DNA from: a virus
Taxonomy: Duplodnaviria; Caudoviricetes
DNA length: 64,000 nucleotides
Strand: one strand, 5' to 3'
IMG/VR virus record: IMGVR_UViG_3300017766_003100
Location: 128,001 to 192,000 of that record
Position 1 is the stretch's first letter; every line of letters starts with the position of its first letter. Made by a program: the position numbers and the translations under genes. Under the pieces are notes generated by a model. It had not been told where the DNA came from and did not search any database. It saw nothing but the letters and a program-made list of their open reading frames with translations. This document shows positions 34,494 through 60,037 of the stretch, piece by piece.

Positions 34494-34500
34494 TATTTAT
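34494..34500 (+). promoter_or_regulatory. Putative late promoter TATTTAT
   Basis: 12 nt upstream of ATG 34513. Confidence 0.5.
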
Positions 34501-34512
34501 TGAAAAAATATT

Positions 34513-35016
34513 ATGAAAAAAATTGTAAGATTAACTGAATCAAATTTAATTAGATTGATAAAAAGAGTAGTTAATGAAAACGAAGAAAGTTTAAGAACTA
34601 AAATAAGTAAAGAGAGGCAAGGAATTGGTAATTTTGATAAAACTAAGGACTATAAAATTAAAGTTCTAAAAAGATTTCCTAAATATTTGATTGATATTCA
34701 TGATACTGCAGTTAATTATTGGGAAGATACTTTAGAGTCTTTTCCGTACACAAAAGAAGAATTAGATAAAGATAAACAGATTTACTCAACTCAAGAATAT
34801 GTATCTAAATCTTTTATAGATAGTATTACAGATAAAATATATGAAAAATCAGATATAATATTATGTGAAGATAAACAAGGTAAACTTTGGTTGTTAGATG
34901 GACATCATAGATTAGTTTATGATAGAATGAATAACCGAAATTCTAAAGTTTATATTATACCTTTTGAAGATGTTGTTGAAATACAAGACACTTTCTATTC
35001 TGGAGGAGATGATTAA
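34513..35016 (+). CDS. ParB/Srx-like domain protein with N-terminal head-targeting-like peptide
   Basis: LWLLDGHHRL motif; N-terminus MKKIVRLTESNLIRLIKRVVNE. Confidence 0.6.
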   Translation: MKKIVRLTESNLIRLIKRVVNENEESLRTKISKERQGIGNFDKTKDYKIKVLKRFPKYLIDIHDTAVNYWEDTLESFPYTKEELDKDKQIYSTQEYVSKSFIDSITDKIYEKSDIILCEDKQGKLWLLDGHHRLVYDRMNNRNSKVYIIPFEDVVEIQDTFYSGGDD

Positions 35017-35037
35017 AAAACAATAAAAATTAATAAT

Positions 35038-35256
35038 ATGGCAGATAGAAGAAGTACAGAAATATTTGAAAGAATATTCGAAGTGTTGGCAAACAATCCA
35101 GTTCAAGAAAACATTGATATTGCCAATGAAATGTGGTCAATGATTGGTGATTATGATATTCCACTCAGTAATTTGGAATATGAAAATCTAATAACACTTG
35201 GTTTGGCGAGTGTTGATGAAGATGGTGAAATAAAATATAAAGAAGTTTCATATTAA
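35038..35256 (+). CDS. Hypothetical protein
   Basis: ORF with A-rich leader. Confidence 0.5.
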   Translation: MADRRSTEIFERIFEVLANNPVQENIDIANEMWSMIGDYDIPLSNLEYENLITLGLASVDEDGEIKYKEVSY

Positions 35257-35258
35257 CA

Positions 35259-35265
35259 TATTTAT
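35259..35265 (+). promoter_or_regulatory. Putative late promoter TATTTAT
   Basis: 12 nt upstream of ATG 35278. Confidence 0.5.
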
Positions 35266-35277
35266 AGTTAAAAACAT

Positions 35278-35652
35278 ATGGAAAAGTTAATAAGAAGAAT
35301 CTTAAAAGAAATTAGAGAAGAAAATCCCCATCATCAACTTAAAAAGTTTTTGGAAGATAGGATTAGTTTTGAAGGTTATGATTTGGATAAAAATCCACGT
35401 AACAAAATTAGTCAATTATATGATGTTTTTGAAGATGAATATGGTTGGGCTATCAAAAGAATGGGTGAAAGAAAAGCTATAATTGAATGGTTACAAGGAT
35501 TACCAAGTACAATTGATATTCCTTATTATTATGATGAAATCAGTAATTTATTGTATGCTTTAGGTTTTGATGAGGTCAAAGAAATGGAAGATGATGAAGT
35601 TAGTGAATTTTATTATGATTTAATTGCAAAAACTATTCTAAAAAACAAGTAA
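35278..35652 (+). CDS. Hypothetical protein with IRRILKE N-terminus (putative head-internal protein)
   Basis: MEKLIRRILKEIRE. Confidence 0.5.
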   Translation: MEKLIRRILKEIREENPHHQLKKFLEDRISFEGYDLDKNPRNKISQLYDVFEDEYGWAIKRMGERKAIIEWLQGLPSTIDIPYYYDEISNLLYALGFDEVKEMEDDEVSEFYYDLIAKTILKNK

Positions 35653-35673
35653 ATTAATTAACATTTAACTTTT

Positions 35674-36003: not shown

Positions 36004-36005
36004 CA

Positions 36006-37971: not shown

Positions 37972-38591
37972 AAAAAGTATTAGAGTTATTTGCTGGTAGT
38001 CGTTCTATTGGTAAAGCCGCAGAATCACTTGGAATGGAAGTATTTTCAGTTGATTGGGAACAATATGAGGGGATAAATTTATCAAAAGATATTGGTGAAT
38101 TAACAATGGAAGATGTTCCATTCACCCCTGATATTGTTTGGGCTTCACCAGATTGTACAACATATACAATTGCTGCAATATCACACCACAGAAACGGAAC
38201 TGAACCCAAAAGTGAATATGCAAAAAAATGTGATATGGTTAATCAACATTTTATTTCATTGATAAAACAATGGTTAACCATTAATCCAAATATGGTATTC
38301 TTTATTGAAAATCCAAGGGGTATGTTAAGAAAGATGCCTTGGATGTTAGAATTCACAAGACATACAATATGGTATTGCAAATATGGTGATGAAAGAGCCA
38401 AACCAACTGATATATGGACAAATAGTACAACTTGGATAGCAAGACCTGTTTGCAAGAATGGTAATACGGAATGTCATCACCAACCAGCACCAAGGGGAAG
38501 TAAAACTGGAACTCAAGGTAGAAAAGGAAGTTATGAAAGAAGTAAAATACCTGAACAACTTTGCAATGAAATATTAACATCAACATTATGA
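37968..38591 (+). CDS. DNA (cytosine-5) methyltransferase, compact
   Basis: LELFAG (motif I), WASPDC (IV), IENP (VI), YCKYG...KPT (VIII-like). Confidence 0.8.
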   Translation: MKKVLELFAGSRSIGKAAESLGMEVFSVDWEQYEGINLSKDIGELTMEDVPFTPDIVWASPDCTTYTIAAISHHRNGTEPKSEYAKKCDMVNQHFISLIKQWLTINPNMVFFIENPRGMLRKMPWMLEFTRHTIWYCKYGDERAKPTDIWTNSTTWIARPVCKNGNTECHHQPAPRGSKTGTQGRKGSYERSKIPEQLCNEILTSTL

Positions 38592-39220
38592 AAGTATTAA
38601 ATCTATATGCAGGTATTGGTGGGAATAGAAAATATTGGGAAGATGTTGAAGTAACAGCGGTTGAATATAATGAAGAAATCGCAAATGTATATCAACATTT
38701 TTTCCCCAATGATAATGTTATTGTTGATGATGCCCACGAATATCTTGCAAAGAATTGGAGAAACTTTGATTTTATATGGAGCAGTCCCCCTTGTCAAAGT
38801 CATAGCAAAGTTAGGATGATGGCAAGCAAGGGTGGAAGTTATGATTCAGTAATGCCAGATATGAAATTATGGGCGGAGATAATCTTCTTACAAAACTTCA
38901 CAAAGAATACCAATATAAAGTTTGTTGTTGAGAATGTTAAACCCTATTATGAACCATTTGTTAAACCATCATTGAAATTGGGAAGACATTTATTTTGGAC
39001 AAACTTTGATATTCCAATTATTGATATTAAGGATGGTTTAACCCATAATGAGAGGGGAAGTTCAGAGAAGGGTTATTTTGATTTGAGGGAGTTTAAATTA
39101 AAACATAGGAAAGACCAAATTATTAGAAATTGTGTTGACCCCAATGTTGGAAAATATATATTTGACATTGTTAAAAAAAATAATTATGATGGAGAAAAAA
39201 TTGGTGAGATTTCCCAATGA
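38588..39220 (+). CDS. DNA (cytosine-5) methyltransferase, compact
   Basis: LNLYAGIGG (I), WSSPPCQ (IV), VENV (VI), GRHLFW (VIII). Confidence 0.85.
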   Translation: MKVLNLYAGIGGNRKYWEDVEVTAVEYNEEIANVYQHFFPNDNVIVDDAHEYLAKNWRNFDFIWSSPPCQSHSKVRMMASKGGSYDSVMPDMKLWAEIIFLQNFTKNTNIKFVVENVKPYYEPFVKPSLKLGRHLFWTNFDIPIIDIKDGLTHNERGSSEKGYFDLREFKLKHRKDQIIRNCVDPNVGKYIFDIVKKNNYDGEKIGEISQ

Positions 39221-39332
39221 AAGTGAGTTCATTGAAATGGAAATCAATATGGATGAATTTGATAATGATAAAACATTTGAACAAGAAATGTTTGGATGGT
39301 ACAAAGGAATTTACATTTCAATTAAATTATAA
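39186..39332 (+). CDS. Small hypothetical protein
   Basis: ATG 39186 (MMEKKLVRFP...); TAATG coupling to the next gene. Confidence 0.45.
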   Translation: MMEKKLVRFPNESEFIEMEINMDEFDNDKTFEQEMFGWYKGIYISIKL

Positions 39333-39763
39333 TGGAACTAATAACAACTTATATTTGTAAATTATCTGACACTGGTGTTCACGATAATATATTTGGTGGA
39401 ACAATACTTGGATTGATTGACCAAAGTGCTGGTGCTTATGCCGCACAGATATGTGATACACCAAGAATGGTGACAGTTAAAATTGATGAATTGGTTTTTA
39501 AGAATCCAGTTAAAGCTGGAACAATTATAAAAATATATGGTAAAGTTTTGGAATTTGGTAATACTTCCATAACTTTATACATTGAAGTTAGAAAACATAA
39601 TGTTTACACTGGTAAACAAGAGGTTGTGGTTTCAACTAATATCAAGTTTGTTAGAATTGATGAAGAAGGTTATCCAATTCCAATCTCGGAAAGAGTTAAG
39701 ATTAGATACAATGAAAGAATTGAAAAATATGGTAAAGGATTATTAAACCCTGATGAAAGATAA
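39332..39763 (+). CDS. Acyl-CoA thioesterase (YciA-type hotdog fold)
   Basis: DTGVHDNIFGGTILGLIDQSAG, VTVKIDELVFKNPV, FGNTSI, FVRIDEEG.P. Confidence 0.85.
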   Translation: MELITTYICKLSDTGVHDNIFGGTILGLIDQSAGAYAAQICDTPRMVTVKIDELVFKNPVKAGTIIKIYGKVLEFGNTSITLYIEVRKHNVYTGKQEVVVSTNIKFVRIDEEGYPIPISERVKIRYNERIEKYGKGLLNPDER

Positions 39764-39769
39764 ATTAAT

Positions 39770-40240
39770 ATGGAAGATTTTGATTCATTAAATGAAAAAC
39801 AATTGGAATCCCTTGAAAGGGGACTCTCCGATTTAAAAAATAATAGAGTTATGACAAGTGATGAGTTTTGGAAGGAATTGTTATCAAAAAAAGAACAACA
39901 AGTACTAATTGATGAGGCTTATGAGAATTATTGTAAGTCATTTGAAAATCAAACACTAATTGAACAATACTCTTTTGATACAGACCCAATGACTCAATTT
40001 ATGTTCATCAACAAATGTAAAACAGATTCTGAGTTCTCTGAGAAATGGGGTCTAACCATTGAAGAACGAGAGTTGAGTTTGGAAGAACGATATGATTGGT
40101 TTATAAAAACATATAACACAAATTTAACAAGAAGTAGTAATCAATATAATATGGAAGATATATTGAGTAGTAATAATTGTTCAAATAAACTAATCACAAT
40201 ATCTTATCACGATAAAACAATAGAAAGTTATGAAAGTTAA
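39770..40240 (+). CDS. Chimeric hypothetical protein (antitoxin-like N-terminus; thyA-like internal segment)
   Basis: LERGLSDLKNNRVMTSDEFW; FINKCKTDSEFSEKWG matches thyA FINKIKTDDEFAQKWG. Confidence 0.5.
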   Translation: MEDFDSLNEKQLESLERGLSDLKNNRVMTSDEFWKELLSKKEQQVLIDEAYENYCKSFENQTLIEQYSFDTDPMTQFMFINKCKTDSEFSEKWGLTIEERELSLEERYDWFIKTYNTNLTRSSNQYNMEDILSSNNCSNKLITISYHDKTIESYES

Positions 40241-40511
40241 AATTAATGAAAAATGGTTTGAGGGAAGATATAATGATGAGCGAAAATTTATTATACCCCT
40301 ATCTGAAGAGCAAGATATTATATTTTTTTATAAATGGCAAAAAAAACATAATAAGTTTGGTATGCCAAAATCAGATTACACAGAAGATATTGAATATAAA
40401 ACAATATGTGAGTCTGGTACTTTAATTAGTTGTTACCCGATACTAAACCTAAATGAAGATGAGGTTTGGTTAAAATTTGATAGTTATAAACCAATTGAAT
40501 CTTATGAATGA
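40230..40511 (+). CDS. Hypothetical protein
   Basis: Overlapping packed ORF. Confidence 0.45.
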   Translation: MKVKINEKWFEGRYNDERKFIIPLSEEQDIIFFYKWQKKHNKFGMPKSDYTEDIEYKTICESGTLISCYPILNLNEDEVWLKFDSYKPIESYE

Positions 40512-40665
40512 TAAAATTTTAATTGGAAAAAAAGGGAAATCTGATAATGGTTATGTTTTTGCTGCTTACATTAAAATATTAGAACTACAACTCCCTATAA
40601 AATTCGTCCGACTTGATGAAAAAGGTCAACCAATCTTTATTAAAATAAACAATAACGAATTATGA
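40504..40665 (+). CDS. Small chimeric ORF with thioesterase-like C-terminal segment
   Basis: IKFVRLDEKGQPIFI vs thioesterase IKFVRIDEEGYPIPI. Confidence 0.45.
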   Translation: MNDKILIGKKGKSDNGYVFAAYIKILELQLPIKFVRLDEKGQPIFIKINNNEL

Positions 40666-40871
40666 AAATTAACATTGATGGAAATGATTTACTCAAACAC
40701 TTAACATTTTGGCATAATAAAACCGATGATGAGTGCATTGAGTTGGCAACCAACGAATTTGGATTAGATGCTCAAGAAGCATTAATGAATATGCTTGAGA
40801 GGGATTTCTGTACCCAAGTAAACAATAATATCATTGAAGATTTAAAAAAATGGATTAACGATTATGAATAA
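40662..40871 (+). CDS. Hypothetical protein
   Basis: ATGA overlap. Confidence 0.45.
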   Translation: MKINIDGNDLLKHLTFWHNKTDDECIELATNEFGLDAQEALMNMLERDFCTQVNNNIIEDLKKWINDYE

Positions 40872-41067
40872 AAGAGATATTATAGAATCAATGTTGAATA
40901 TGGAAGACCCAATTACCAAACAACATTGGATGAGTTGGGATAAAGGTGATTGCTCAGAAATAGGATTGTGTGAGATATTATTAGCACAACTTATTAGAGA
41001 ACATAAAGAAGCAAATGAACTATATTATGATACAGACTACGATAAAATAACATTAAGATATGAATAA
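40864..41067 (+). CDS. Hypothetical protein
   Basis: Overlapping packed ORF. Confidence 0.45.
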   Translation: MNKRDIIESMLNMEDPITKQHWMSWDKGDCSEIGLCEILLAQLIREHKEANELYYDTDYDKITLRYE

Positions 41068-41197
41068 AGAACAACAAACACTCTATTCAGAAATTGAAAC
41101 ACTTATTATTAAGTGGAATATTGATGGAACTAAAACTGCAGGTTCTCTCACTAGAGATATAATGAAACTAATAGAAAGTAAAAATGAAAATCAATAA
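41060..41197 (+). CDS. Small hypothetical protein (45 aa, not in track)
   Basis: MNKEQQTLYSEIETLIIKWNIDGTKTAG... Confidence 0.45.
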   Translation: MNKEQQTLYSEIETLIIKWNIDGTKTAGSLTRDIMKLIESKNENQ

Positions 41198-41336
41198 AGA
41201 AGAACTATATAAACTCTATATGGAGTGGGTAGATGGAGTTGCCGAAGAATGTGATTGGAAAACTTCATTTACACCAGAAGAAATAGTTGGAGCAATCTCT
41301 ACCATTTTAGAAAATAATCCACAATTATATGAGTAA
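41184..41336 (+). CDS. Small hypothetical protein (50 aa, not in track)
   Basis: MKINKEELYKLYMEWVDGVAEECDWKT... Confidence 0.5.
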   Translation: MKINKEELYKLYMEWVDGVAEECDWKTSFTPEEIVGAISTILENNPQLYE

Positions 41337-41490
41337 AGAAGATACATATTCAATACCTATTTACGAAAACGGAGTGAAGACAGAATGGAGTGTTGATGGA
41401 ATAATTGGTGATGAGAAATACTTTAAATTATTAGAGTTGGGTAATGGGAAAGATTTACCTGATATGATTAACACAACAACGAAACAATAG
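41329..41490 (+). CDS. Small hypothetical protein (53 aa, not in track)
   Basis: MSKEDTYSIPIYENGVKTEW... Confidence 0.45.
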   Translation: MSKEDTYSIPIYENGVKTEWSVDGIIGDEKYFKLLELGNGKDLPDMINTTTKQ

Positions 41491-41496
41491 ATTAGT

Positions 41497-41625
41497 ATGA
41501 ACAAACTAGATAAACTAATAGAATGGGTTAGTTGGGAAACATCCACACACTACTGCATTTCTCAATGGGATGTAGCCTCTTCAATTAAAATCAAATGGAT
41601 TAAAAAAAATGAACAAACTAGATAA
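41497..41625 (+). CDS. Small ORF (42 aa) starting MNKLDKLIE
   Basis: Open frame from ATG 41497 to TAA 41625. Confidence 0.35.
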   Translation: MNKLDKLIEWVSWETSTHYCISQWDVASSIKIKWIKKNEQTR

Positions 41626-41637
41626 ACTAATAGAATG
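41497..41637 (+). repeat. 29-bp perfect direct repeat of a gene start (41497-41525 and 41609-41637); near-copy at thyA start 41817
   Basis: atgaacaaactagataaactaatagaatg occurs twice; thyA begins atgaataaactagataaa. Confidence 0.9.
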
Positions 41638-41824
41638 CGGTGCTGAACTAGCACGTAAGCATGAAGAAAAGAGTGATGAAATATTAAATAATCCTGATGT
41701 ACCGCAGGAATTAAAAGATATCATTATTGAAAGTAGAATACCTGATGATAAGATAGTTGATTTAACAGGAGGTAAAAGAATAAAATATATTAATCCCAAC
41801 ACATTCGAAATTGAATATGAATAA
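41609..41824 (+). CDS. Hypothetical protein starting MNKLDKLIE
   Basis: ORF, 71 aa. Confidence 0.5.
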   Translation: MNKLDKLIECGAELARKHEEKSDEILNNPDVPQELKDIIIESRIPDDKIVDLTGGKRIKYINPNTFEIEYE

Positions 41825-43121
41825 ACTAGATAAAGATTACACAGCACTCCTACAAGACATACTTGATAATGGAGTTACAAAAAAAGACAGAACTGGCACT
41901 GGTACTATCTCAGTATTCGGTAGACAAATTCGTCATCGAATGAGTGATGGATTTCCATTATTAACTTCCAAAAAAATGTATTTCAAAGGTATTGTAACCG
42001 AACTTATATGGTTTTTAAGGGGTGATACAAATATCAAATACCTTGTTGATAATAATTGTCATATATGGGATGGGGATGCTTATAAGAGGTTTTCTCAAAT
42101 TAGAAAATCCATGTTAATGTTAAAACCACCTGCATCGGAAGATAAATTAAGAGAATATATTGAGTGGTATGAGCAAGTAACAACACAAGAAGAATTCATT
42201 AACAAAATCAAAACAGATGATGAGTTTGCTCAGAAGTGGGGTGAACTCGGCTCCATCTATGGTAAGCAATGGAGAAGTTGGAATAAAAAGAAAATGTATC
42301 TATCGACAGATGGTTCATACGAAAACATTTATGATGAGGCTGACCAAACAGTTATAGACCAAATTGCAAACCTAATCAACGACCTTAAAACAAATCCAGA
42401 TTCAAGACGCCTACTTGTGTCAGCTTGGAATGTTGGAGAATTGGATTCAATGACACTTCCACCTTGTCATTATGGATTTCAAGTTTATACAAGAGAGTTG
42501 AGTAATGAGGAAGTTGCATTTGAAGCAAATAAAAGAGGTTTTAATCTTAAAGGAATGACTGTAATGGGTAAATTATTGATTGACCCTAAAGAAGTCAAAG
42601 AATACAACTTACCAACCAGAGCAATCTCTTTAATGTATAATACCAGAAGCCAAGATTTACCATTAGGTACGCCATTCAATATAGCTTCTTACGGACTTTT
42701 ATTAACAATACTTGGTAAGATGGTTAATATGGTTCCAGATGAATTAATTGCTAATATGGGTGATTGTCATATCTACTTAAATCAAGTTGAGGGTGTGAAA
42801 GAACAGATTGGTAGAGCAATGACCACTGAAGAAAGAATGGATTGGTGGTTTAAGAATTGTAAACCGAATAAAGAAGTTTGCGATAGTGTTGATGAAATGC
42901 CTGACTATGGTAAACACACTATTTTTGATTTGTGTTTACCAAGAACACCAACACGAACAAGAGAACCATATCCCCTACCAACATTAAAGATTAATTCAGG
43001 TAATGAGAATTGGCATTTGTTAGAGTTAGATGAAGTATTGAATACAATAGACCCAGACATTACATTCAAGGTTGAAAACTATCAATCACATCCAACAATT
43101 AAATTTCCATTATCAAATTAA
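41817..43121 (+). CDS. thyA: Thymidylate synthase with two in-frame insertions
   Basis: DRTGTGT, FPLLTSKK, YGKQWR, PDSRR, catalytic LPPCH, RSQD, PFNIASY (dUMP-type Asn), GDCHIY; ATG 41817. Confidence 0.95.
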   Translation: MNKLDKDYTALLQDILDNGVTKKDRTGTGTISVFGRQIRHRMSDGFPLLTSKKMYFKGIVTELIWFLRGDTNIKYLVDNNCHIWDGDAYKRFSQIRKSMLMLKPPASEDKLREYIEWYEQVTTQEEFINKIKTDDEFAQKWGELGSIYGKQWRSWNKKKMYLSTDGSYENIYDEADQTVIDQIANLINDLKTNPDSRRLLVSAWNVGELDSMTLPPCHYGFQVYTRELSNEEVAFEANKRGFNLKGMTVMGKLLIDPKEVKEYNLPTRAISLMYNTRSQDLPLGTPFNIASYGLLLTILGKMVNMVPDELIANMGDCHIYLNQVEGVKEQIGRAMTTEERMDWWFKNCKPNKEVCDSVDEMPDYGKHTIFDLCLPRTPTRTREPYPLPTLKINSGNENWHLLELDEVLNTIDPDITFKVENYQSHPTIKFPLSN

Positions 43122-43125
43122 GAAT

Positions 43126-43368
43126 ATGAAAACAATCAAAATTAGATTTATCTATTATCCAAATCGTGATAGATACACTATCCAAAGAAAAACTTTATTT
43201 GGTTGGAAAGATATTACACGTAGAATAGATTTTGGGTATGGTAGTGGTATTGAGTATTACGCTGGAAGTACAAAAGAAGATTTATTGAATGTTGTATTGG
43301 ATGATTATTATATAGTTAATAAAAAACATATTAGAATTGTTGAATATCCCGAATTAAAATTTTATTAA
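43126..43368 (+). CDS. Hypothetical protein
   Basis: ATG 43126, MKTIKIRFIY... Confidence 0.5.
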   Translation: MKTIKIRFIYYPNRDRYTIQRKTLFGWKDITRRIDFGYGSGIEYYAGSTKEDLLNVVLDDYYIVNKKHIRIVEYPELKFY

Positions 43369-43369
43369 T

Positions 43370-43633
43370 ATGAAAACAGAAACATTAAAAAAACTAATAC
43401 AAAATGTCTTTGATAAAACAGATGACAAAGAAGAAATATATAGTGAAATTATGGCGTTGATTACATTATACGAATTAGATGAACCAGAACCAAAATTTCT
43501 AAACAACGCGTTCCCCTATAAAACATTTGAAAATCCATATTACATTAATTGTATGTGTAATCCATTGAATGGTGGTGATGGAATCTGTAATTGTACAAAA
43601 GGGGGACAGTATTATTCAACAACAACAATATAA
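43370..43633 (+). CDS. Hypothetical protein with C-terminal Cys cluster
   Basis: CMCNPLNGGDGICNC. Confidence 0.5.
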   Translation: MKTETLKKLIQNVFDKTDDKEEIYSEIMALITLYELDEPEPKFLNNAFPYKTFENPYYINCMCNPLNGGDGICNCTKGGQYYSTTTI

Positions 43634-43639
43634 AAACAA

Positions 43640-44203
43640 ATGGGAATAGTAGAACATTCAAAATTAGAATTACAAATGGCTGGATACTTTGATGAAGATT
43701 CAGATTATGGTGGAGCTTTAGGTGATGCCGTTATGGAACTTATTGAAGTATTTGCCAAACAAGGACATTCAGGTATGTCAGCATCAATGGTAAGAGCATT
43801 ATTTGCAAAATTAGGAAATTATGAACCCCTATTACCAATCACAGGGAAAGATGAAGAGTGGGGTGATATAAGAGATTATAGTAATAATCCTTATTATCAA
43901 AACAAAAGAGAAAGTGCTTTATTCAAGTATAGTGATGGTAGTGTTCATTACATAAAAGCTATTGTTAAAAGAACTCCTGATGGAATTACTTGGACTGGTC
44001 CATTATATCTTACAAGAGAAGATGCTATTAATTGTGTAGATAGAATTGGTAGTAATTTAGAAATCAAAGGATTTCCATTCATACCAAAGACATTTTACAT
44101 TGATGTATTAGAAGAAGAAATTGAAAAGGATGATTGGATTATGTGGTGTAAAGACCCCTCTCAATTAGATGAAGTTTGGGAATACTATAAAAAACCTTAT
44201 TAA
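43640..44203 (+). CDS. Conserved phage hypothetical protein
   Basis: ELIEVFAKQGHSGMSA...PLLPITGKDEEW motif typical of a widespread phage family. Confidence 0.55.
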   Translation: MGIVEHSKLELQMAGYFDEDSDYGGALGDAVMELIEVFAKQGHSGMSASMVRALFAKLGNYEPLLPITGKDEEWGDIRDYSNNPYYQNKRESALFKYSDGSVHYIKAIVKRTPDGITWTGPLYLTREDAINCVDRIGSNLEIKGFPFIPKTFYIDVLEEEIEKDDWIMWCKDPSQLDEVWEYYKKPY

Positions 44204-44445
44204 TGAATATGAAAAAACTATTATTTTTATTATTAGTCATTTTAATGACATCTTGTGTTGACCAAGTAAATAGACAAAAACATTTGGAAAAATTATATCC
44301 AAATTGTAAAGTTGAACCAGCAACAGGATTAGTTCAACAAAACGGATTTGATTTTATTGTAATTGATTCAACAAACCAAATCATTGCTGTAAACTTCTAT
44401 ATGTTCAGTGAAACAAAAATATGGTCATTAAGAAATATTAGATAA
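44203..44445 (+). CDS. Putative lipoprotein
   Basis: MKKLLFLLLVILMTS-C lipobox-type signal. Confidence 0.65.
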   Translation: MNMKKLLFLLLVILMTSCVDQVNRQKHLEKLYPNCKVEPATGLVQQNGFDFIVIDSTNQIIAVNFYMFSETKIWSLRNIR

Positions 44446-44458
44446 AATTATTAATCAA

Positions 44459-44465
44459 TATTTAT
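44459..44465 (+). promoter_or_regulatory. Putative late promoter TATTTAT
   Basis: 15 nt upstream of ATG 44481. Confidence 0.5.
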
Positions 44466-44480
44466 TTGATAAAAATCACA

Positions 44481-44906
44481 ATGAGAAATATTATAAAAAA
44501 AATATTGAGAGAAGAATCTGAACTAAACGAATTAAAACGTTTAGTTGATTCATATCAACCAAATAATGTACAATTAGCTTTAATAATGTCAGAAGGATTT
44601 GGACTTAAAAAAGAAGTTTTAGAACTTATTCTTAATCGGATATTAGAAGAAATTAAAACATTAGTTGAAGAAAATCCTGATGAATATAGTGATGAAGTTT
44701 TAGATTTGATTGAATATGTTAATGAGATTAAAATAAATAAGATAACAGAAAATTTTAGTAAAAGTACTAAATATGTTATATATGTTGACGTTTATTACTC
44801 TAATTCAACTGAAGAAGATTTTGATTCTTTATTTGGAGAAATTGAGTGGGACTTTCAAAAATTAACTGGAGAACGTCTTATGTTAGAGTTAACAAAAATA
44901 GATTAA
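44481..44906 (+). CDS. Acidic protein with IIKKILRE N-terminus (putative head-internal protein)
   Basis: ATG 44481: MRNIIKKILREESELNE. Confidence 0.5.
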   Translation: MRNIIKKILREESELNELKRLVDSYQPNNVQLALIMSEGFGLKKEVLELILNRILEEIKTLVEENPDEYSDEVLDLIEYVNEIKINKITENFSKSTKYVIYVDVYYSNSTEEDFDSLFGEIEWDFQKLTGERLMLELTKID

Positions 44907-44916
44907 AATTGGTAAT

Positions 44917-45039
44917 ATGAATACATTTGTAGTTGTCAAAGAATTGGAAAATGGTTATATTATAATGGCACCAGATGGTGAAACTAGTTATATAACAGAA
45001 GATACTTATCAAAAACTAAAATCCAAAGGTAAAATATAG
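44917..45039 (+). CDS. Small hypothetical protein (40 aa, not in track)
   Basis: MNTFVVVKELENGYII...; abuts GTG 45039. Confidence 0.4.
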   Translation: MNTFVVVKELENGYIIMAPDGETSYITEDTYQKLKSKGKI

Positions 45040-45275: not shown

Positions 45276-45277
45276 GA

Positions 45278-49541: not shown

Positions 49542-50342
49542 ATGAAAGAAAAAAATTCAGGTATTCCAATCAATCAAGAAGAAATCCAATCTTATCTTAA
49601 AGACATAAGAAAGAAAAAGGTAATGACCCCAGAGAGGGAGAAACAACTATCAGAACTAATGAAGTCTGACACCTTGACTCTTGAAGAAAGGGAAAAAGTA
49701 AACAAAGAACTATTGGAGGGTAATCTACGATTTGTAATTACCGTGGCCAAACAATACCAAAATCAAGGATTGGATTTACCTGACCTTATCGCTGAAGGTA
49801 ATCTTGGTCTTATGAAAGCCATCAAAAACTTTGATTGGAACAAAGACCTACGTTTTATATCTTATGCGGTATGGTGGGTTAAACAATCAATCCTTCAAAG
49901 TTTGAATGATAATGCAAGAACAATTCGACTCCCAGTTAATGTTGTTCAAGATTTACATAGGGCTAAAAAAGAAGTTGATAAAAGAGGGGGTGAACTAGAT
50001 GAAAGATTTGTTGGTTTACCATCAATGATTGACCTTGATATGGACATCAATGAAGAAGGTGACACACTATTCGATGTGTTGAAGAATGATGATGCGGATA
50101 TGCCTGATGAATCATTTAATACGAAAGATATCCTTAAAACCAAATTACTTGGATTGTTGACTTGTTTGGATGAACGCGAGAAAACCATTATTGAAGATTA
50201 TTTTGGTCTTACAGGTTCACCAAGAACATTGGAAGATATTGGTGGGGACTTTAATCTTACGAAAGAAAGAGTACGTCAAATAAAAGAAAAATCATTGAGA
50301 AAGTTGAGAAACTTATCTAGTGATTTATTTGAATGGATGTAA
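49542..50342 (+). CDS. rpoD: RpoD/SigA-type sigma70 factor lacking region 1.1 (Bacteroidota-like)
   Basis: Region 1.2 QSYLKDI; region 2 NLRFVITVAKQYQNQG...DLIAEGNLGL...FISYAVWWVKQSIL; region 4 TLEDIG..FNLTKERVRQIKEK. Confidence 0.9.
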   Translation: MKEKNSGIPINQEEIQSYLKDIRKKKVMTPEREKQLSELMKSDTLTLEEREKVNKELLEGNLRFVITVAKQYQNQGLDLPDLIAEGNLGLMKAIKNFDWNKDLRFISYAVWWVKQSILQSLNDNARTIRLPVNVVQDLHRAKKEVDKRGGELDERFVGLPSMIDLDMDINEEGDTLFDVLKNDDADMPDESFNTKDILKTKLLGLLTCLDEREKTIIEDYFGLTGSPRTLEDIGGDFNLTKERVRQIKEKSLRKLRNLSSDLFEWM

Positions 50343-50397: not shown

Positions 50398-50691
50398 ATG
50401 AAAAAAGTAATAGATTTTATTGAAAAATATGGATTAATAATTTTGGTTGTCTTAATCGTAACCAGCACTTGTTCTAGTAATATGAGTAAACGAAGAAGTG
50501 AGAAAAAAATAAGTGACCAATTTGATAGTTTGAAAACTGAAATAAAAACTTTGAAGAATGAGTTGAAAAAAGAAATCAAAGTTGAAGGATTGAAAGCTGA
50601 AAAAAGAATGATTCAAGCGAGTGATAGAAAGATTATGGACTTGCAAAGACAAATTGAAATTGATAAAGAACTGAAGACACTAGATAAATGA
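50398..50691 (+). CDS. Membrane-anchored coiled-coil protein (spanin-like candidate)
   Basis: N-terminal TM/lipobox-like segment LIILVVLIVTSTC followed by a coiled coil; first gene of the putative lysis cassette. Confidence 0.45.
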   Translation: MKKVIDFIEKYGLIILVVLIVTSTCSSNMSKRRSEKKISDQFDSLKTEIKTLKNELKKEIKVEGLKAEKRMIQASDRKIMDLQRQIEIDKELKTLDK

Positions 50692-51521
50692 ATAACCTAT
50701 TAACCTGGATTAAAGAAAACCCCATTCGTTCAATGTTTCTTGTACCCATATTTTTGGTTGCGGGAATATCAATATCTCACGTTGTTGCGTGGTATGATAT
50801 AACAAACCCATTCAGTTGGGCAATTTATCTATCAGTAGCAATTGAGATTGGTGCCATAACAGCACTGATTGCCGCCACACAGAAGATTAAAGGTGGGGTG
50901 TGGTTTATGTTCGGATTGGTAACATTCGTTCAAATGGTGGGAAATATATTCTATTCATATAAAGAGATTGACCCAACTGGAGATTTGTTTAAAGCGTGGG
51001 TTGAACTTACATCTCCAATCTTTGAATTGTTTGGAACAGAACCAACGGATATAATATCACATAAAAGATGGTTGGCAATATTGGGTGGAGGATTACTTCC
51101 AATTATATCTTTGACTTCATTACACTTCTTTGTAAAATATGAAAAACCACAAGAAGAGATTATTGAAAACGATAGAGATTTGGAAATTGTTTCATTAATG
51201 GATTTGGAGACTTTAGAGAAAGAAGAACAAAAAGAAGTTGAAAAACCAAAAACTAAAAAAGGTAGAAAGAAAAAAGAAGTTGTTGAAGAACCTCAATTAT
51301 TAAATGAAGAAAAAGAAGTTAAAATGATTGATGATTGGTTAGACCAATATGGTAACCCAGCAATTACTGAGAAAGTATTAAAAGAGTCGGAAAAAATTGA
51401 AAATGAAAAAGTTGAAGAAGAAATAGTCCCAATACCTCTTGAACCAAAAATAGAACAACCACCTATACGTCCATCAAAATTGACATACACCAAACCAAAT
51501 GTTTCAATAGATAGATTATGA
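50688..51521 (+). CDS. Multi-TM membrane protein (holin candidate) with charged C-terminal tail
   Basis: About four hydrophobic helices; adjacent to the amidase. Confidence 0.45.
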   Translation: MNNLLTWIKENPIRSMFLVPIFLVAGISISHVVAWYDITNPFSWAIYLSVAIEIGAITALIAATQKIKGGVWFMFGLVTFVQMVGNIFYSYKEIDPTGDLFKAWVELTSPIFELFGTEPTDIISHKRWLAILGGGLLPIISLTSLHFFVKYEKPQEEIIENDRDLEIVSLMDLETLEKEEQKEVEKPKTKKGRKKKEVVEEPQLLNEEKEVKMIDDWLDQYGNPAITEKVLKESEKIENEKVEEEIVPIPLEPKIEQPPIRPSKLTYTKPNVSIDRL

Positions 51522-52114
51522 TTGACATAATCAAATATGGGGACTTTAAACCTTTGGGGAAACAAAAGAAGAAACACCAAATAATTCTCACACATACAGG
51601 AAGAAATGTGGAGAATTATTTGGCTTCTTTACGTTATAGGTACAATGGAAAATATGATAGAATTCCAAATTATGTAATTAAAAAAGATGGAACAATAATT
51701 AAACTTCTTGAGAATATTGAACACACAAATTATTACAAAAAGATTAATGTAAATCGAAATGGTATTTTTATATGTTTGGAAAATTTAGGATGGCTTGAAA
51801 AACAACCATTAAAAGACTATTACATTAATTGGATAGGAGATATTTATAAGGGTGAGGTATTTGAGAGGAAATGGAGAGATTATTTCTTTTGGGATAAATA
51901 CACTAACGAACAGATTGATAGTTTAACAATACTTTGTAAAACTATAATCAAGGAAAAAAGAATGAGTAAAGACATAATAGGTCATAATACAAAGGTTAGA
52001 AATGTTGAATTGTTTGAAGGAATAGTAACTAGAAGTAATTTTGATTCAAACATAACTGATGTAAGTCCCGCCTTTGATTTTGAAAAATTTAGAAAAAAAA
52101 TAGAAAATGAGTAA
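51518..52114 (+). CDS. N-acetylmuramoyl-L-alanine amidase (Amidase_2-like)
   Basis: IILTHT, PNYVIKKDGTI, GIFICLEN, YTNEQIDSLTIL, GHNT, DVSPAF. Confidence 0.7.
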   Translation: MIDIIKYGDFKPLGKQKKKHQIILTHTGRNVENYLASLRYRYNGKYDRIPNYVIKKDGTIIKLLENIEHTNYYKKINVNRNGIFICLENLGWLEKQPLKDYYINWIGDIYKGEVFERKWRDYFFWDKYTNEQIDSLTILCKTIIKEKRMSKDIIGHNTKVRNVELFEGIVTRSNFDSNITDVSPAFDFEKFRKKIENE

Positions 52115-53478: not shown

Positions 53479-53485
53479 TATTTAT
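53479..53485 (+). promoter_or_regulatory. Putative late promoter TATTTAT
   Basis: 14 nt upstream of ATG 53500. Confidence 0.5.
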
Positions 53486-53499: not shown

Positions 53500-55152
53500 A
53501 TGAAAAATTCAGAACAATACTTAAAAAGATTATTAAGAAAATCTATCAATGAAACTTTGGAAGAAAAAGCTGATAAATTGATGGGTAAAATAAAAGGATA
53601 TGAAATGGGTGAAGGTTTTGATTCACCTGAAATAAAATCAATGAGAGGTGGTAAAGATTTCAATCCTGATGAATTTAAAAAAATTAGATTTCCTCGTGAA
53701 AAGTTCAAAGGATTTGATGACGATTCAATGACTCAAGATGAATTTGATTATAGAGAATCAATGAGAGATTTTGAAGATGAATATGACCAAGAACAAATGC
53801 GAAAAGAATTGTCCCCTGAAGAAGAACCATATATCAAAGATGATGAAGAAGTTGAGGATGATTTAAGTTGGTTAGATGATGATGATGATGATGATGAAGA
53901 CGATGACGATGATATGGATACTGAATTTGGAGGTGGTGATATGGAAACTATCATGGAAGGTGAAATGTGTGAACAATGTGGTTCAGGTAGTATAAGAGAA
54001 GGAGAGTGTAATGAATGTGGTTATAGAAGAATGGATGAAGACATATATGATGAATCTGAAGATTGGGGCAAAGGTACTCAAGACTTTGACTATGTTCAAG
54101 CTGAAGATGAAGAAAGAACGGAAGAAAATGATGATATTCTTGAGGGATATTGTAGTAAAAGTAGTCATAAATATGACGCACGTAGATGTCAAATACATAA
54201 AGAAATGATGAAAGAAGAAATCAATGAAAAATTACATGGAAAACAACATAAATTAGATAAAAATAAAAATGGTAAAATTGATTCAGGAGATTTCAAACTT
54301 TTACGTAAGAAAAAACAAAAATCTGAAGTTGATGAGGAAGAGATGGAAGAAGGTAATAAATTTACTGGTATGTTAGCCAAAGCTCGTAAAGGTGATAAAT
54401 TTACATTAGATGGTAAAACTTATACTGATACCTCTGATTATGATATTAACGAAAGTATTGAATATCGTATAAAAGATAGTTCAGGTGATTTTATTAGACT
54501 TAATGAGAGTGAAATGGTTGATTTTATTGAAAACATTGTTAATGAACAGAAAACGAGATTAAAAGTTATGGGTAAACCAAAAGGATTAACAACATACGAA
54601 AAAGCTCATAAAGAATCTGGTAAAGAAAATGAAGAATATTTCAAGTCATTAAATAAGAAGATGAAAGACTATCTTAAAGATGGGTCAAAGGGTAAATATG
54701 AAATGGAACCAAAACATTTCCCTAAAGGTAATGGTGAATTGGCCAAAATGGATAAGAAAGCCTATAAAATGACTGATGACCTTGAAGACTTCAACTACGA
54801 AATTGCTGGACAAAACTTCCCCATTCCTGATGCTATAGATTATAATGAAGAATGGATGGATAAATTGTTCCAAGGTGATTCTATGACAGGTAATGCACCA
54901 GGTGGTAATGCTTTAGATTCTGAAACTAATAAGAGATTCAATAAGATGAGAAAGAAAAACACTCTTAAGAAAATCAAAGACCAATCATACAAAAGAGTAC
55001 CACAACCAGTCTTCAATGAAAAACCAGGTAATGATACTGGAAAAGGTTTAGGTTTAAAACTTGAAACTGTTGAAACTAAAAAAGTTATTAAATTGAATGA
55101 AGAGTTTGATAGAATTAAAAATTTATTTTCATACGATAGAAAAACTCAATAA
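53500..55152 (+). CDS. Acidic scaffold/head-core-like protein with Zn-ribbon and EF-hand-like modules
   Basis: LKRLLRKSINE N-terminus; poly-Asp; CEQC...CNEC; DKNKNGKIDSGD; C-terminal LNEEFDRIKNLF. Confidence 0.5.
   Translation: MKNSEQYLKRLLRKSINETLEEKADKLMGKIKGYEMGEGFDSPEIKSMRGGKDFNPDEFKKIRFPREKFKGFDDDSMTQDEFDYRESMRDFEDEYDQEQMRKELSPEEEPYIKDDEEVEDDLSWLDDDDDDDEDDDDDMDTEFGGGDMETIMEGEMCEQCGSGSIREGECNECGYRRMDEDIYDESEDWGKGTQDFDYVQAEDEERTEENDDILEGYCSKSSHKYDARRCQIHKEMMKEEINEKLHGKQHKLDKNKNGKIDSGDFKLLRKKKQKSEVDEEEMEEGNKFTGMLAKARKGDKFTLDGKTYTDTSDYDINESIEYRIKDSSGDFIRLNESEMVDFIENIVNEQKTRLKVMGKPKGLTTYEKAHKESGKENEEYFKSLNKKMKDYLKDGSKGKYEMEPKHFPKGNGELAKMDKKAYKMTDDLEDFNYEIAGQNFPIPDAIDYNEEWMDKLFQGDSMTGNAPGGNALDSETNKRFNKMRKKNTLKKIKDQSYKRVPQPVFNEKPGNDTGKGLGLKLETVETKKVIKLNEEFDRIKNLFSYDRKTQ
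53875..53913 (+). repeat. (GAT)n trinucleotide tract encoding a poly-Asp run
   Basis: (GAT)7 followed by GAA GAC GAT GAC GAT GAT. Confidence 0.85.
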
Positions 55153-55725: not shown

Positions 55726-55908
55726 ATGGATACACTAGAAAAAATCAAAATCTTAACTGAAGAACTATCAGTAGACACTACAAAATTTTTCAAAGGGAAT
55801 AATAGTGCTGGAACTAGAGCAAGAAAATTGGCTCAAGAATTAAAAAATGAGTTACAAAACCTTAGAAATGAAATTTTGAAAGAAAGAAACAAACCAGAAA
55901 ATGTTTAG
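55726..55908 (+). CDS. Hc1/'histone H1'-like small DNA-binding protein (Bacteroidota type)
   Basis: KFFKGNNSAGTRARK matches the GNK.AGTRARK family motif. Confidence 0.7.
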   Translation: MDTLEKIKILTEELSVDTTKFFKGNNSAGTRARKLAQELKNELQNLRNEILKERNKPENV

Positions 55909-56665: not shown

Positions 56666-56880
56666 TCGAAAAATTGGCATTAATATCTGAAGGTTTGGGT
56701 GATATATTACCCAACGCCAAAGTTGCCGTGGTATATTCACTTAGTAATTATGATTTTACTTTTATGAAAGCACAAGTGAATGATTTTACAGATAATGATA
56801 AATTTAAAATAGACATTTCTGGTACTGAATTCATCTTTTTGAAAGATGAGCTGTTGAATACCTCTGAAGGTAATCAATAG
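56632..56880 (+). CDS. Hypothetical protein
   Basis: ORF, 82 aa. Confidence 0.5.
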   Translation: MATNKESINGIIEKLALISEGLGDILPNAKVAVVYSLSNYDFTFMKAQVNDFTDNDKFKIDISGTEFIFLKDELLNTSEGNQ

Positions 56881-57472
56881 GAAAACCCTCCTCAACTAAT
56901 AATTTATAAAGATATTTTCTATGGATTGTTGAGTAATCATTAACAATAATACAATCCTTTTTTCCTTGTTTAGTAAGTTCCTGATGTAAGCTTTCAGTAA
57001 ACCTAAGACCATCTAATTCTGATTTAAATGTAAATAAATTAATTACATCATCATTTTGAACTATAATTTTATTATTCAATTTAGATACTTGTTTTAAACC
57101 AGGACCTTTAAGATATTTGGTTATGAAATATTTTGTATTAATTTTCTGTTTTGTTCTATAATCCAAAAATAACTCCTCCAACTTGTATTCTTGAATTTTT
57201 AATATATTGAAGTTTTCATCATCAATTTCCACTTTAATATTTCTACCAAGATTATCTTTGATATAAATTTGGTTATTGTTTTTTTTACCAAATTCTAACA
57301 AACCTAGTTCAAAAATACATTCTTTACCATTCTCAGTCCTTTTTTCAAAAATTACTTCAGAACTTTCTTTTATCAAAGAATCGTATTTCTTTTTGGCCTT
57401 ATCCAAGGTCAAAAATTTCTTGATTATTCTTTGTTTTTCTTTATTTTTGAAAAGTACTATTTGATAATTCAT
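56831..57472 (-). CDS. Hypothetical protein (isolated minus-strand gene)
   Basis: 213-aa ORF with TATTTAT (57483-57489) 10 nt upstream. Confidence 0.65.
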   Translation of the reverse strand: MNYQIVLFKNKEKQRIIKKFLTLDKAKKKYDSLIKESSEVIFEKRTENGKECIFELGLLEFGKKNNNQIYIKDNLGRNIKVEIDDENFNILKIQEYKLEELFLDYRTKQKINTKYFITKYLKGPGLKQVSKLNNKIIVQNDDVINLFTFKSELDGLRFTESLHQELTKQGKKDCIIVNDYSTIHRKYLYKLLVEEGFPIDYLQRYSTAHLSKR

Positions 57473-57510
57473 AATTCTTAAAATAAATAATATTAATATC
57501 TAAGTAAAGT

Positions 57511-58445
57511 ATGGAAAACTTATATGAAGTTTTGGGTGTGAATGAAACTTCCACTTCCGATGAAATAAAGAAAGCTTATAGAAAATTGGCAATGGAACAT
57601 CATCCTGATAAAGGAGGAGATGAAGAAAAATTTAAAAAAATTTCAGAAGCTTATGATACTTTGGGTGATGAAAATAAAGAACTCAATATGATAACCAAAG
57701 AAAAAATCCATTTGGTAATATGGGTGGAGTGGGTAGTATGTTTGAAGAATTCTTTAATGGTGGATTCCATCACCAAAGAAAAACTAATGCCCCTGAAAAA
57801 GTAATTAATTTGGAAATTGGTGCTATTGAATCATACTTGGGTGTGGAAAAAATAATTAATTTTGATAGAAAAATTAAATGTGAACCTTGTAATGGTAGAG
57901 GTGGTGAAAAAGTTAAATGTCATGGTTGTAATGGAACAGGATTTAGTGTTATAACTATGGGGTCTGGTTTATTTAAACAAATAATGAGACAAGCCTGTAA
58001 TGTCTGTAGAGGAAGTGGTGAGTTATTTAAGAAAGTTTGTAACACTTGTGGTGGGTCAACAACCAATACAATAAAAGAATCTGTTAAAGTTAAAATACCA
58101 CACGGAATTGGTGATGGACAATTTATGAGATTACATAACTATGGTGACTTCTACAATAATAGTTATGGTAATTTGGTTATAAGATTGTTTGTTGTCCCTG
58201 AAAACAATTTTGAGAAGAGAGAAAACGATTTAGTTTATCACGCATATATGAATTTGGAACAAATCCAAATGGATAGTTTGGATATACCTCACCCAAATGG
58301 AACAATATCAATTAAACTACCAAATGAAATTGATACAACAAAACCTTTAAGAGTTAGATACAAGGGATATAAATCAACTGAACAACATTCAAATGATAAG
58401 GGGGATTTAATTATCAGTTTACACGTAAAGTTTACAAGAAAATAG
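57511..58445 (+). pseudogene. dnaJ: Type I DnaJ chaperone split by a frameshift near 57678
   Basis: J-domain with HPD in frame 57511; G/F segment, four CxxCxGxG repeats and CTD in the -1 frame; adding one A gives [18 protein letters not shown]. Confidence 0.8.
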
Positions 58446-58578
58446 AAATCAAATTCTGTATCAGAATTATAGTACCATAAATTGAAGTACCCAAAATAAA
58501 TAAGGATAATACACCTAAACCAATTTGGGTATTACTCAAACCTTTTTTACAAGAATTACAACTTTTTTCTTTTTTCAT
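58432..58578 (-). CDS. Small membrane protein with CxxC (48 aa, not in track)
   Basis: MKKEKSCNSCKKGLSNTQIGLGVLSLFILGTSIYGTIILIQNLISIFL. Confidence 0.6.
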   Translation of the reverse strand: MKKEKSCNSCKKGLSNTQIGLGVLSLFILGTSIYGTIILIQNLISIFL

Positions 58579-58641
58579 ATTAGTTTTTAAGGTAAAAATA
58601 TTATCTTTGTTTAAATAATCAACAATTTAATTTAATTCTGA

Positions 58642-58648
58642 TATTTAT
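58642..58648 (+). promoter_or_regulatory. Putative late promoter TATTTAT
   Basis: 15 nt upstream of ATG 58664. Confidence 0.5.
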
Positions 58649-58663
58649 ATAAAAAAAATTGAA

Positions 58664-60037
58664 ATGAAATTTAATTCCGTTCTAAAAAAACTAATACTTG
58701 AAAACTCAAGATTTAAGGTATTATATGATAAAATGGTTATTCCATCTCAAAAGGCTTTAGAAAAAAATCCAAATGCAAAAGGATTGATGGCCTTTGATGT
58801 ATTAAAACAAATTATATTTGCCGACCCAGATACTAAAGCTCCTGAAAATTTTGATATTGAAGGTGCTAACATTGATGAAATGGACACTGTTAAAGTTGGT
58901 AAATATTCACAATGGATATTGAAACAATTTGTTATTCCTAATTTACCTGAAGAAGAAAAAAATTTAGACCCACAATCCAAAGAATATAAAGAAGCTATAA
59001 AAAGATATAGAGCATTATTTTTGGAAGATTTGTTCAAAATCAAAGAACGATTGGAATTTTACGAAAAAGTAAAACAATATTTACCTCAAGAACAAAGAGA
59101 TATTAATAAATTGACTTCAGACCAATTGAAGTATATTTTTGCTAATTTTAAACTTCCTGAGAAGAAACAAAAAGAAATTGAAAAGAAACAAGCAAGACAA
59201 ACAAGAGAAGGTTTCAAACATGCTGGTGGTAAAATTATCTTTGAGGGGAATGATTGGGTTCTAATCAAAATAGAAGGTAATAATCCAACTAGTAAAGATG
59301 CAGCCATTTATTATGGTGGATTTAAAGATTATAGAAATGGTGAATCTGATTGGTGTACTTCAGGACCTGGATTAAGTTTTTTTGAGGGATATATTAAAAA
59401 CGGACCTCTCTATGTTATTTTTCCACAAAATGATAATGGTGAAGTTGGGTCAAGAACAGGATTACCAAAAGAAAGATATCAGTTCCATTTCCCATCAAAT
59501 CAATTTATGGATAGACATGACAAACAAATTGATTTAGTTTCATTTTTAAGTCAAAAAGCACCAGAACTAAAAGAACAATTCAAGAGTGAATTTGCGAGAG
59601 GTTTATTTACTGATGGTGGAAAAAAAGTTGAAATTTCATATCCTAATAGTTCTGCAGGTAAATATGTTGCAATATATGGTTTTGATGACTTGTTTGAGAA
59701 TTTACCAGCAGATATTGAAACATTGAAAATTATCAATACAAGTAATTCATCAATTTCATTAGAGTTGCCAAAATCAATTGGGCGATTCAATAAATTAACA
59801 GCATTGGTTTTACAAAATATGGTTAAGAGTATTCCGAATGAAGTTGGGAATATATCAACATTAGAATTTTTATCTTTACCTGATAATAAAAATCTTGTAT
59901 CTTTACCTGAGAATTTAGCCGATTTAGAGTATCTATCATTTATCAATATTAAAGGAACTAGTCCAAATCTTGAAATACCTGAAAGATTAAAAGAAAAAAT
60001 GGTAGACCAAAAAGATGGATTTTATTATGTAATGTAA
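58664..60037 (+). CDS. Protein with central WCT domain and C-terminal leucine-rich repeats
   Basis: LKKLILE N-terminus; DWCTSGPG...RYQFHF; LPKSIGRFNKLTALVL, IPNEVGNISTLEFLSL, LPENLADLEYLSFINI. Confidence 0.7.
   Translation: MKFNSVLKKLILENSRFKVLYDKMVIPSQKALEKNPNAKGLMAFDVLKQIIFADPDTKAPENFDIEGANIDEMDTVKVGKYSQWILKQFVIPNLPEEEKNLDPQSKEYKEAIKRYRALFLEDLFKIKERLEFYEKVKQYLPQEQRDINKLTSDQLKYIFANFKLPEKKQKEIEKKQARQTREGFKHAGGKIIFEGNDWVLIKIEGNNPTSKDAAIYYGGFKDYRNGESDWCTSGPGLSFFEGYIKNGPLYVIFPQNDNGEVGSRTGLPKERYQFHFPSNQFMDRHDKQIDLVSFLSQKAPELKEQFKSEFARGLFTDGGKKVEISYPNSSAGKYVAIYGFDDLFENLPADIETLKIINTSNSSISLELPKSIGRFNKLTALVLQNMVKSIPNEVGNISTLEFLSLPDNKNLVSLPENLADLEYLSFINIKGTSPNLEIPERLKEKMVDQKDGFYYVM

Follow-up and report, generated by a model that had tools for sequence, protein, structure and literature searches.

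Five genes in a stretch of phage DNA begin with a short basic peptide that ends in glutamate, and this peptide is best explained as a capsid (prohead) targeting propeptide, comparable to the capsid targeting sequence (CTS) of phage T4 and removed after the Glu. The reading is drawn from sequence comparison, and we give it a probability of about 0.6. The stretch, called the window in what follows, comprises 64,000 nt of IMG/VR record IMGVR_UViG_3300017766_003100 (positions 128,001 to 192,000) and is part of a 218,387-bp contig; the phage is a large freshwater T4-type phage. Throughout, the genes are named by the window position at which they start: 34513, 35278, 44481, 53500 and 58664 (Table 1).

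A position-specific and portable N-terminal tag

An earlier note on this DNA had pointed out five unrelated open reading frames (ORFs) with alike basic N-terminal peptides. All five are present, with ATG starts and the peptides as described; for 44481 the ATG at that position is the usable start, since a TTG further upstream, at 44466, directly adjoins the promoter motif. The consensus offered then, (I/L)xx(I/L)(I/L)xE, is exact for 35278, 44481 and 58664 and does not hold for the other two. All five are covered by the core [ILVM][ILVM][KR][KR][ILVMS][ILVM]xE; it begins at residue 4, 4, 6, 11 or 15 across the five genes, and every tag ends in [ILV]-x-E.

How specific is this core for the N-terminus? 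In the window (~20,000 residues) it occurs five times, always within the first 22 residues and always behind the motif TATTTAT, and the remaining 17,385 residues hold no match. Shuffles that keep the N-terminal composition give an expectation of 0.02 N-terminal matches. The core was derived from the five genes of the window, and four related contigs, G001 to G004, which together encode 159 thousand amino acids (kaa), served as an independent test: there it matches 20 times, 20/20 at the N-terminus, against 0.13 N-terminal matches expected by shuffling. The excess over shuffled N-termini that the earlier proposal implied is thus found in both sets, and when the window is pooled with the four contigs all 25 matches are N-terminal, with none in ~158,000 other residues. 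One of these contigs, the 98-kb G003 (IMGVR_UViG_3300034061_005227), carries at least 14 tagged genes, 11 by the strict core and three by a looser pattern. Examples lie at 26459-27742, 60550-62219 and 75373-77565, and several stand in tandem arrays; one tagged body of G003 has an HD domain (L044:1602-2219, E = 9e-5).

The leader of 34513 belongs to a 22-residue form of the tag, MKKIVRLTESDLxxLVKRVIxE(Q), termed class A. A profile built from 13 such leaders and searched against 1.84 billion representative proteins retrieved 7,850 protein clusters at E<=1e-3 and 480 at E<=1e-10. Among the top 150 the tag begins at Met1 in 138, and the bodies behind class A tags are mostly unrelated to each other (122 bodies fall into 86 BLAST clusters). 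All the class A-tagged proteins that were looked up are unnamed metagenomic ones, on contigs of up to 400 kb, and five near-complete tag-bearing genomes (240-322 kb) have 7-17 class A tagged ORFs each. A word-indexed search with residues 1-40 of 34513 returned 15 candidates, the method being too insensitive for a tag of 22 amino acids (aa).

The bodies are independent of what precedes them. The product of 35278 has a homologue in an Escherichia coli phage (phrog_11100) that is without the leader and aligns only from residue 21, and the structural matches of 34513 and 44481 in the Atlas start at about residue 26-31 (from about residue 26 for 44481). Because this homologue and these structural look-alikes align only past the tag, the latter is an add-on. 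For most tagged bodies of the relatives, PHROGs and Pfam gave no match. Taken with the position counts, these comparisons speak for an N-terminal tag that keeps its position and is portable between unrelated proteins. A literature search, by the letters of the tag and by capsid targeting combined with metagenomic T4-like phages, found no paper describing these tags; the tag is of a new sequence, and its repertoire far exceeds that of T4.

The tag is not confined to the first residues of the predicted proteins. In 18 of the top 150 tagged proteins a second, internal tag is found, typically with another x-Glu site before it, as expected for polyproteins cut at their tags. These two-tag proteins look like natural polyproteins of the tag-body-tag-body type. 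Proteins P0136-P0158 of the representative library are of this two-tag kind, their second tag lacking a Met and following an x-Glu site.

Could the peptide be without function, merely the by-product of a recombining promoter-leader DNA cassette or of codon bias at A/T-rich N-termini? Such an origin would account for the fact that ATATTTAT, an A-rich leader and starts rich in Lys, Ile and Leu are common to all five genes. However, the DNA of the five genes can be aligned over the promoter and the A-rich leader only, the distance of the tag from Met1 varies, and the codons differ: eleven distinct class A tags use varied synonymous codons at the conserved residues, including both TCN and AGY for Ser. 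Since synonymous codons vary and the start of the tag ranges from residue 4 to 15, selection acts on the peptide and not on the DNA. With the composition-preserving shuffles also standing against it, this explanation is highly improbable and close to excluded.

Coupling to a late-type promoter motif

The earlier note had also placed TATTTAT 12-15 nt upstream of each of the five genes, and so it is (Table 1). Of its 16 co-oriented upstream occurrences in the window, 12 lie 10-20 nt before an ATG, versus 1/3 for the reverse complement. At the same distance it also stands ahead of virion genes within the window, and in G001 it precedes the protease gene, a gene adjoining a portal-like gene and tail genes. 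The association with the tag, which had been anticipated, is strong. In the window alone TATTTAT lies upstream of 5/5 tagged and 8/82 untagged genes; over the window and G001-G004 it is found 8-31 nt upstream of 18/25 tagged and 102/640 untagged genes (odds ratio 13.6, Fisher p = 2e-9), a pooled count that includes orthologues, so that the genes are not fully independent. Tagged genes without the motif are mostly second or third in tandem arrays. These counts support a coupling of the tag to a motif that precedes virion genes, and the shared motif is the basis on which late co-expression of the tagged genes with the head genes is suggested.

Another point concerns the surroundings of the tagged genes. 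The window is syntenic with G001 (IMG/VR, 194,498 bp), with ~65-83% nucleotide identity across G001:1-49,296. Two parts of the window, 33,848-35,664 and 37,982-45,688, are absent from G001, and 34513, 35278 and 44481 lie inside them; because both regions are missing there, the three are accessory island genes. The statement that three of the five sit among early accessory genes is therefore borne out for the accessory islands. The early status of the neighbours was inferred from gene content only, and a scan for TTTG-N17-22-TAnnTTTG promoters gives no clear sign that the 30-46 kb region is early.

Two freshwater metatranscriptome libraries (2017, n=2) contain short mismatch-free contigs at window positions 54270-55102, 56811-57007, 58196-58331, 59062-59258 and 59601-59818, which match parts of 53500, 58664 and their neighbours. 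These contigs denote presence only, with DNA carry-over possible, and do not show transcript starts.

Links to head maturation

In T4, the head protease gp21 cleaves after L/I-x-E, and CTSs are 10-19 residues long (PMC9026906); the N-terminal CTS carries the internal proteins into the scaffold core and is then removed (PMC9026906, PMC3012670). Are the same elements at hand here? The head module of G001 comprises a Peptidase_S77 (T4 gp21-type) protease at 160136-160858, a 516-aa acidic scaffold and a gp23-type capsid protein, and one S77 protease is found in each of the five near-complete tag-bearing genomes (5/5). With the specificity taken over from T4, the tag endings LKE, LRE, INE and ILE fit the rule and VNE, that of 34513, is a near fit.

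The capsid protein of the relatives offers a second link. Its 25 distinct N-termini share an almost invariant stretch of 60 residues ending in LINE|A, followed by a variable stretch and a conserved core. Within alignment uncertainty, LINE|A coincides with the maturation position of T4 gp23 (counting without gaps gives LKE at 42-44 instead) and is the probable maturation site of the capsid protein. The scaffold, in turn, has an invariant segment EIxxLVKESLxEQ bordering a variable acidic region (43 relatives), and the pattern hydrophobic-hydrophobic-[KR]-x-x-hydrophobic-x-E-Q matches solely the N-terminal tags and this segment in 179,284 residues. A complex prediction for scaffold and tag, run without controls, scored 0.00 and speaks neither for nor against binding.

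A different role for the helix has to be weighed here, namely that it is a docking or oligomerisation peptide for a tail or baseplate part, a chaperone (e.g., the DnaJ-like protein) or a membrane, with no involvement of the head protease. An amphipathic and basic helix would suit such a role, late expression agrees with any virion or lysis function, and the tag of 58664 is predicted as a free helix. Yet the invariant terminal Glu, directly followed by Gln in 115/168 class A tags, resembles a processing site, the motif matches those of the capsid protein and the scaffold, and the internal copies in polyproteins are flanked by x-E sites; moreover, the tag is charged and not signal-peptide-like. 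On balance, docking is quite unlikely.

Several points weigh against a targeting propeptide of this kind, nonetheless. The window does not reach the head module of its own genome, so that protease, scaffold and capsid protein had to be taken from a relative with ~75% nucleotide identity. The tag of 34513 ends in V-N-E and is not the strict L/I-x-E of T4. The pattern shared by scaffold and tags was picked after the likeness had been noticed, and the scaffold gets no score from the class A profile; for these two reasons the likeness is suggestive only. No likeness is seen between the tags and the leader of T4 internal proteins, MKTYQEFIAE (compared by eye), and the profile finds no class A tag in Flavobacterium phage immuto, the closest cultured phage checked. 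Finally, in the families of 58664 and 53500 the residues after the Glu are conserved like the tag, or nearly so, and the N-termini of these two could for that reason be ordinary parts of the mature proteins.

Targeting, cleavage and delivery are the steps that we infer for the proposed propeptide, and they would follow from a fixed order of elements: late promoter, targeting helix, protease site and body. First, the TATTTAT late-type promoter would drive the tagged genes along with those of the head. Each product would enter the assembling scaffold core by way of its amphipathic helix, of the form hydrophobic-hydrophobic-[K/R]-[K/R]-hydrophobic-hydrophobic-x-E, and the gp21-type (S77) head protease would then cut after the terminal Glu and leave the mature protein free inside the head.

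The five proteins are not equivalent

The earlier note had spoken of a portable packaging tag that turns diverse cargo into co-injected effectors. The portability of the tag, its coupling to the promoter, the protease-type site and the likeness to capsid protein and scaffold agree with this; on the other hand, the five proteins are not equivalent, and 53500 looks like something other than an effector.

The three island genes come closest to that picture. Their products would be delivered with the DNA as swappable cargo, and on sequence grounds they are the best candidates for this. PHROGs and Pfam assign no family to 34513, 44481 or 53500; for 34513 a ParB-type match is below threshold. The ParB/Srx label of 34513 refers to this Pfam match (PF08857, E = 0.0038, 17.8 bits, under the 23.6-bit cut-off) and to Atlas leads to ParB clusters at template-modelling (TM) scores of 0.47-0.49.

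The 550-aa product of 53500 is another matter. It has more than 2,474 homologues and is a core gene of the clade. All 114 aligned homologues keep the INE site of its tag, conservation is poor over residues 30-150, and the N-terminal helix with INE is far better conserved than the next 130 residues. The protein holds six [ILV]NE sites (Poisson p = 2e-5), ranking highest in the window, and its AF2 (AlphaFold2) model is poor, with a predicted local distance difference test (pLDDT) of 54 and a predicted TM score (pTM) of 0.18, mostly helical or disordered. Two other late proteins of G001 end in the same type of helix as its C-terminus, LKE|EIDRFKQLIK (173866-174537, minus strand) and LEE|EVQRIKQLIK (178817-179461, minus strand); the scaffold and protease of G001 likewise end in short amphipathic helices. 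No match to the 550-aa protein was found by tblastn among cultured phages, and its similarity to the G001 scaffold is not significant. With N-terminal, internal and C-terminal motifs, it would be core- or scaffold-like and cut at several hydrophobic-Asn-Glu sites; judged by these features, it is more likely a multiply cleaved core, scaffold-like or polyprotein substrate than an effector. A conserved CxxC...CxxC zinc ribbon and a DKNKNGKID loop lie at residues ~157-174 and 250-266, and some homologues are flagged Dockerin_1 (PF00404) or EF-hand (PF13499); from its sequence, the protein may bind calcium.

Does this protein, then, explain the motif altogether? If so, the motif would be the maturation cut site of scaffold-like head-assembly proteins only, which once cut would be expelled or would stay on as structure, with neither targeting by the peptide itself nor delivery of effectors. 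The six conserved sites of 53500, its disordered or helical model and its C-terminal helix, of a type seen in other late proteins, all fit such a view, as do the occurrence of the same core in the scaffold and the clade-wide conservation of 53500 and 58664. Thousands of small unrelated tagged bodies, often in variable islands and tandem arrays, form instead a pattern of swappable cargo, and a bare cut site would not require 11-22 conserved residues fixed at the extreme N-terminus. A cut site alone is therefore an unlikely explanation, and the targeting propeptide is preferred.

The last of the five, 58664, is another core gene of the clade. Its homologues number more than 2,252, hardly vary in length and have N-termini that read M-R/K-I/F-T-S-L-L-x-x-L-I-x-E-Q/N. 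Its label as a leucine-rich-repeat (LRR) protein stands for one part: Foldseek matches LRR proteins at probability 1.0 over the LRR part only, and PF23598 aligns with residues 346-431 (E = 4.5e-7, below the curated 40-bit cut-off) and is among the precomputed domains of most homologues. The LRR part takes up just the C-terminal ~110 residues, and the rest has no match in Pfam or by Foldseek. The AF2 model is good (pLDDT 82), with residues 1-13 as a detached helix of pLDDT <50 that ends exactly at the Glu. We propose that 58664 is a fixed cargo or a head component.

Table 1. Coordinates of the tagged genes, their tags and the upstream motifs in the window
Feature	Coordinates	Strand	Core	Basis or remark
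TATTTAT late-type promoter motif	34494..34500	+		12 nt before ATG of 34513
Class A tag, residues 1-22 (MKKIVRLTESNLIRLIKRVVNE) of 167-aa protein	34513..34578	+	LIKRVVNE	48 bits against the tag profile
167-aa candidate cargo protein, weak ParB-like domain, island gene	34513..35016	+		DGHHR at residues ~129-133
TATTTAT motif	35259..35265	+		12 nt before ATG of 35278
Short tag, residues 1-11 (MEKLIRRILKE)	35278..35310	+	LIRRILKE	Translation
124-aa candidate cargo, family phrog_11100, island gene	35278..35652	+		Homologue alignment
TATTTAT motif	44459..44465	+		15 nt before ATG of 44481
Short tag, residues 1-11 (MRNIIKKILRE)	44481..44513	+	IIKKILRE	Translation
141-aa acidic candidate cargo, no family assigned, island gene	44481..44906	+		Absent from G001
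TATTTAT motif	53479..53485	+		14 nt before ATG of 53500
Tag, residues 1-18	53500..53553	+	LLRKSINE (end of tag)	Homologue alignment
550-aa conserved acidic protein, Zn-ribbon, six [ILV]NE sites	53500..55152	+		Mostly helical or disordered model
Internal class-A-like copy, residues 332-350 (RLNESEMVDFIENIVNEQ) of 550-aa protein	54493..54549	+		Tag profile
C-terminal helix after LNE (LNE|EFDRIKNLF) of 550-aa protein	55093..55134	+		Same type in G001
TATTTAT motif	58642..58648	+		15 nt before ATG of 58664
Tag, residues 1-13 (MKFNSVLKKLILE) of 457-aa protein	58664..58702	+	VLKKLILE	Modelled as detached low-confidence helix
457-aa conserved protein, C-terminal leucine-rich-repeat domain	58664..60037	+		Pfam and Foldseek

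Known systems and what the tag may mean

The closest counterpart is found in T4, where the CTSs of IPI, IPII and IPIII and the Alt propeptides are likewise short, N-terminal, carried by unrelated proteins and ended by hydrophobic-x-Glu (PMC9026906, PMC3012670). A gp21-type protease, a gp23-type capsid protein, variable cargo genes and, judging from the promoter motif, presumably late expression add to the likeness, and the 11-aa short tags have the length and layout of a T4 CTS. The differences are equally clear: the tags described here are basic with a [KR][KR] pair and include an additional 22-aa class, they number 7-17 of class A per genome and 7,850 clusters compared with a handful in T-even phages, and they also occur as internal copies in polyproteins. 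The tag is an analogue, not a homologue, of the T4 CTS.

In the phiKZ-like giant phages (201phi2-1, phiKZ, SPN3US), head and ejection propeptides are cut after S/A-x-E (PMC9026906, PMC5694885, PMC10052503). There, too, many head-internal proteins are cut after Glu by a diverged gp21-like protease, and propeptide sites are redundant. Unlike the tags, those propeptides are long and share no single portable tag, and these phages are of another lineage, which possesses an inner body and a virion RNA polymerase. Short helices that direct proteins to the inside of an HK97-fold shell are also known from encapsulin cargo-loading peptides and from the C-terminal coat-binding helices of P22-type scaffolds; these are different systems, and their helices are usually C-terminal and uncleaved.

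A broader picture can be drawn, if only tentatively and at somewhat less than even odds: a large clade of freshwater T4-type jumbo phages would load dozens of freely swappable proteins per genome into the capsid by means of one family of cleavable zip codes, N-terminal and also internal in polyproteins, with the LVKESLxEQ of the scaffold as the template that is mimicked. The tag by itself would then point, from sequence, to thousands of proteins that are delivered by the virion and act early, for instance anti-defence factors and nucleases. Were the tag indeed a signal for head loading and removal, the small CTS system of T4 would here have grown to dozens of cargos per genome and acquired polyprotein forms. 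As most of the bodies here are without a family, this class of injected proteins is almost invisible to homology searches, and the tag would open a sequence-only route to the proteins injected by large uncultured phages, including anti-restriction and other counter-defence factors. As a short natural tag, it would also serve to package foreign proteins in phages other than those of E. coli.

Neighbouring genes

The window has ~30% G+C, and Shine-Dalgarno sequences are absent. Virion genes fill its first 30 kb, among them those for a baseplate wedge, a phrog_1645 structural protein and a Hoc-like protein; replication and accessory genes come after. By capsid protein, the nearest cultured relatives are Flavobacterium phage immuto and Microcystis phage Mel-JY01, with ~41-46% identity over the matched half only.

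Which factor reads the late motif? At 49542-50342 (plus strand) the window encodes a 266-aa product with Sigma70_r2 and Sigma70_r4 domains (precomputed Pfam, identical gene in L001). This sigma-like protein may be the reader of TATTTAT, and it is a candidate because a run of TATTTAT-driven genes begins shortly behind its gene. The genes at 50398-52114 (plus strand), a TATTTAT-driven 97-aa membrane-like ORF, a 277-aa membrane-like ORF and a gene for a 198-aa Amidase_2 (PF01510) product, are probably a lysis cassette.

Further downstream, a 60-aa Hc1 histone-like product (PF07432) is encoded at 55726-55908 (plus strand) and a DnaJ-type chaperone (PF00226, PF01556, PF00684) at 57511-58445 (plus strand), each by precomputed Pfam on an identical gene in L002. 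Between them, on the minus strand (56831-57472), a 213-aa ORF lies 10 nt behind TATTTAT and has in its N-terminus a tag-like RIIKKFLTLD, which ends in Asp and not in Glu; in T4, an Asp at the cut position stops processing and leaves targeting (PMC9026906).

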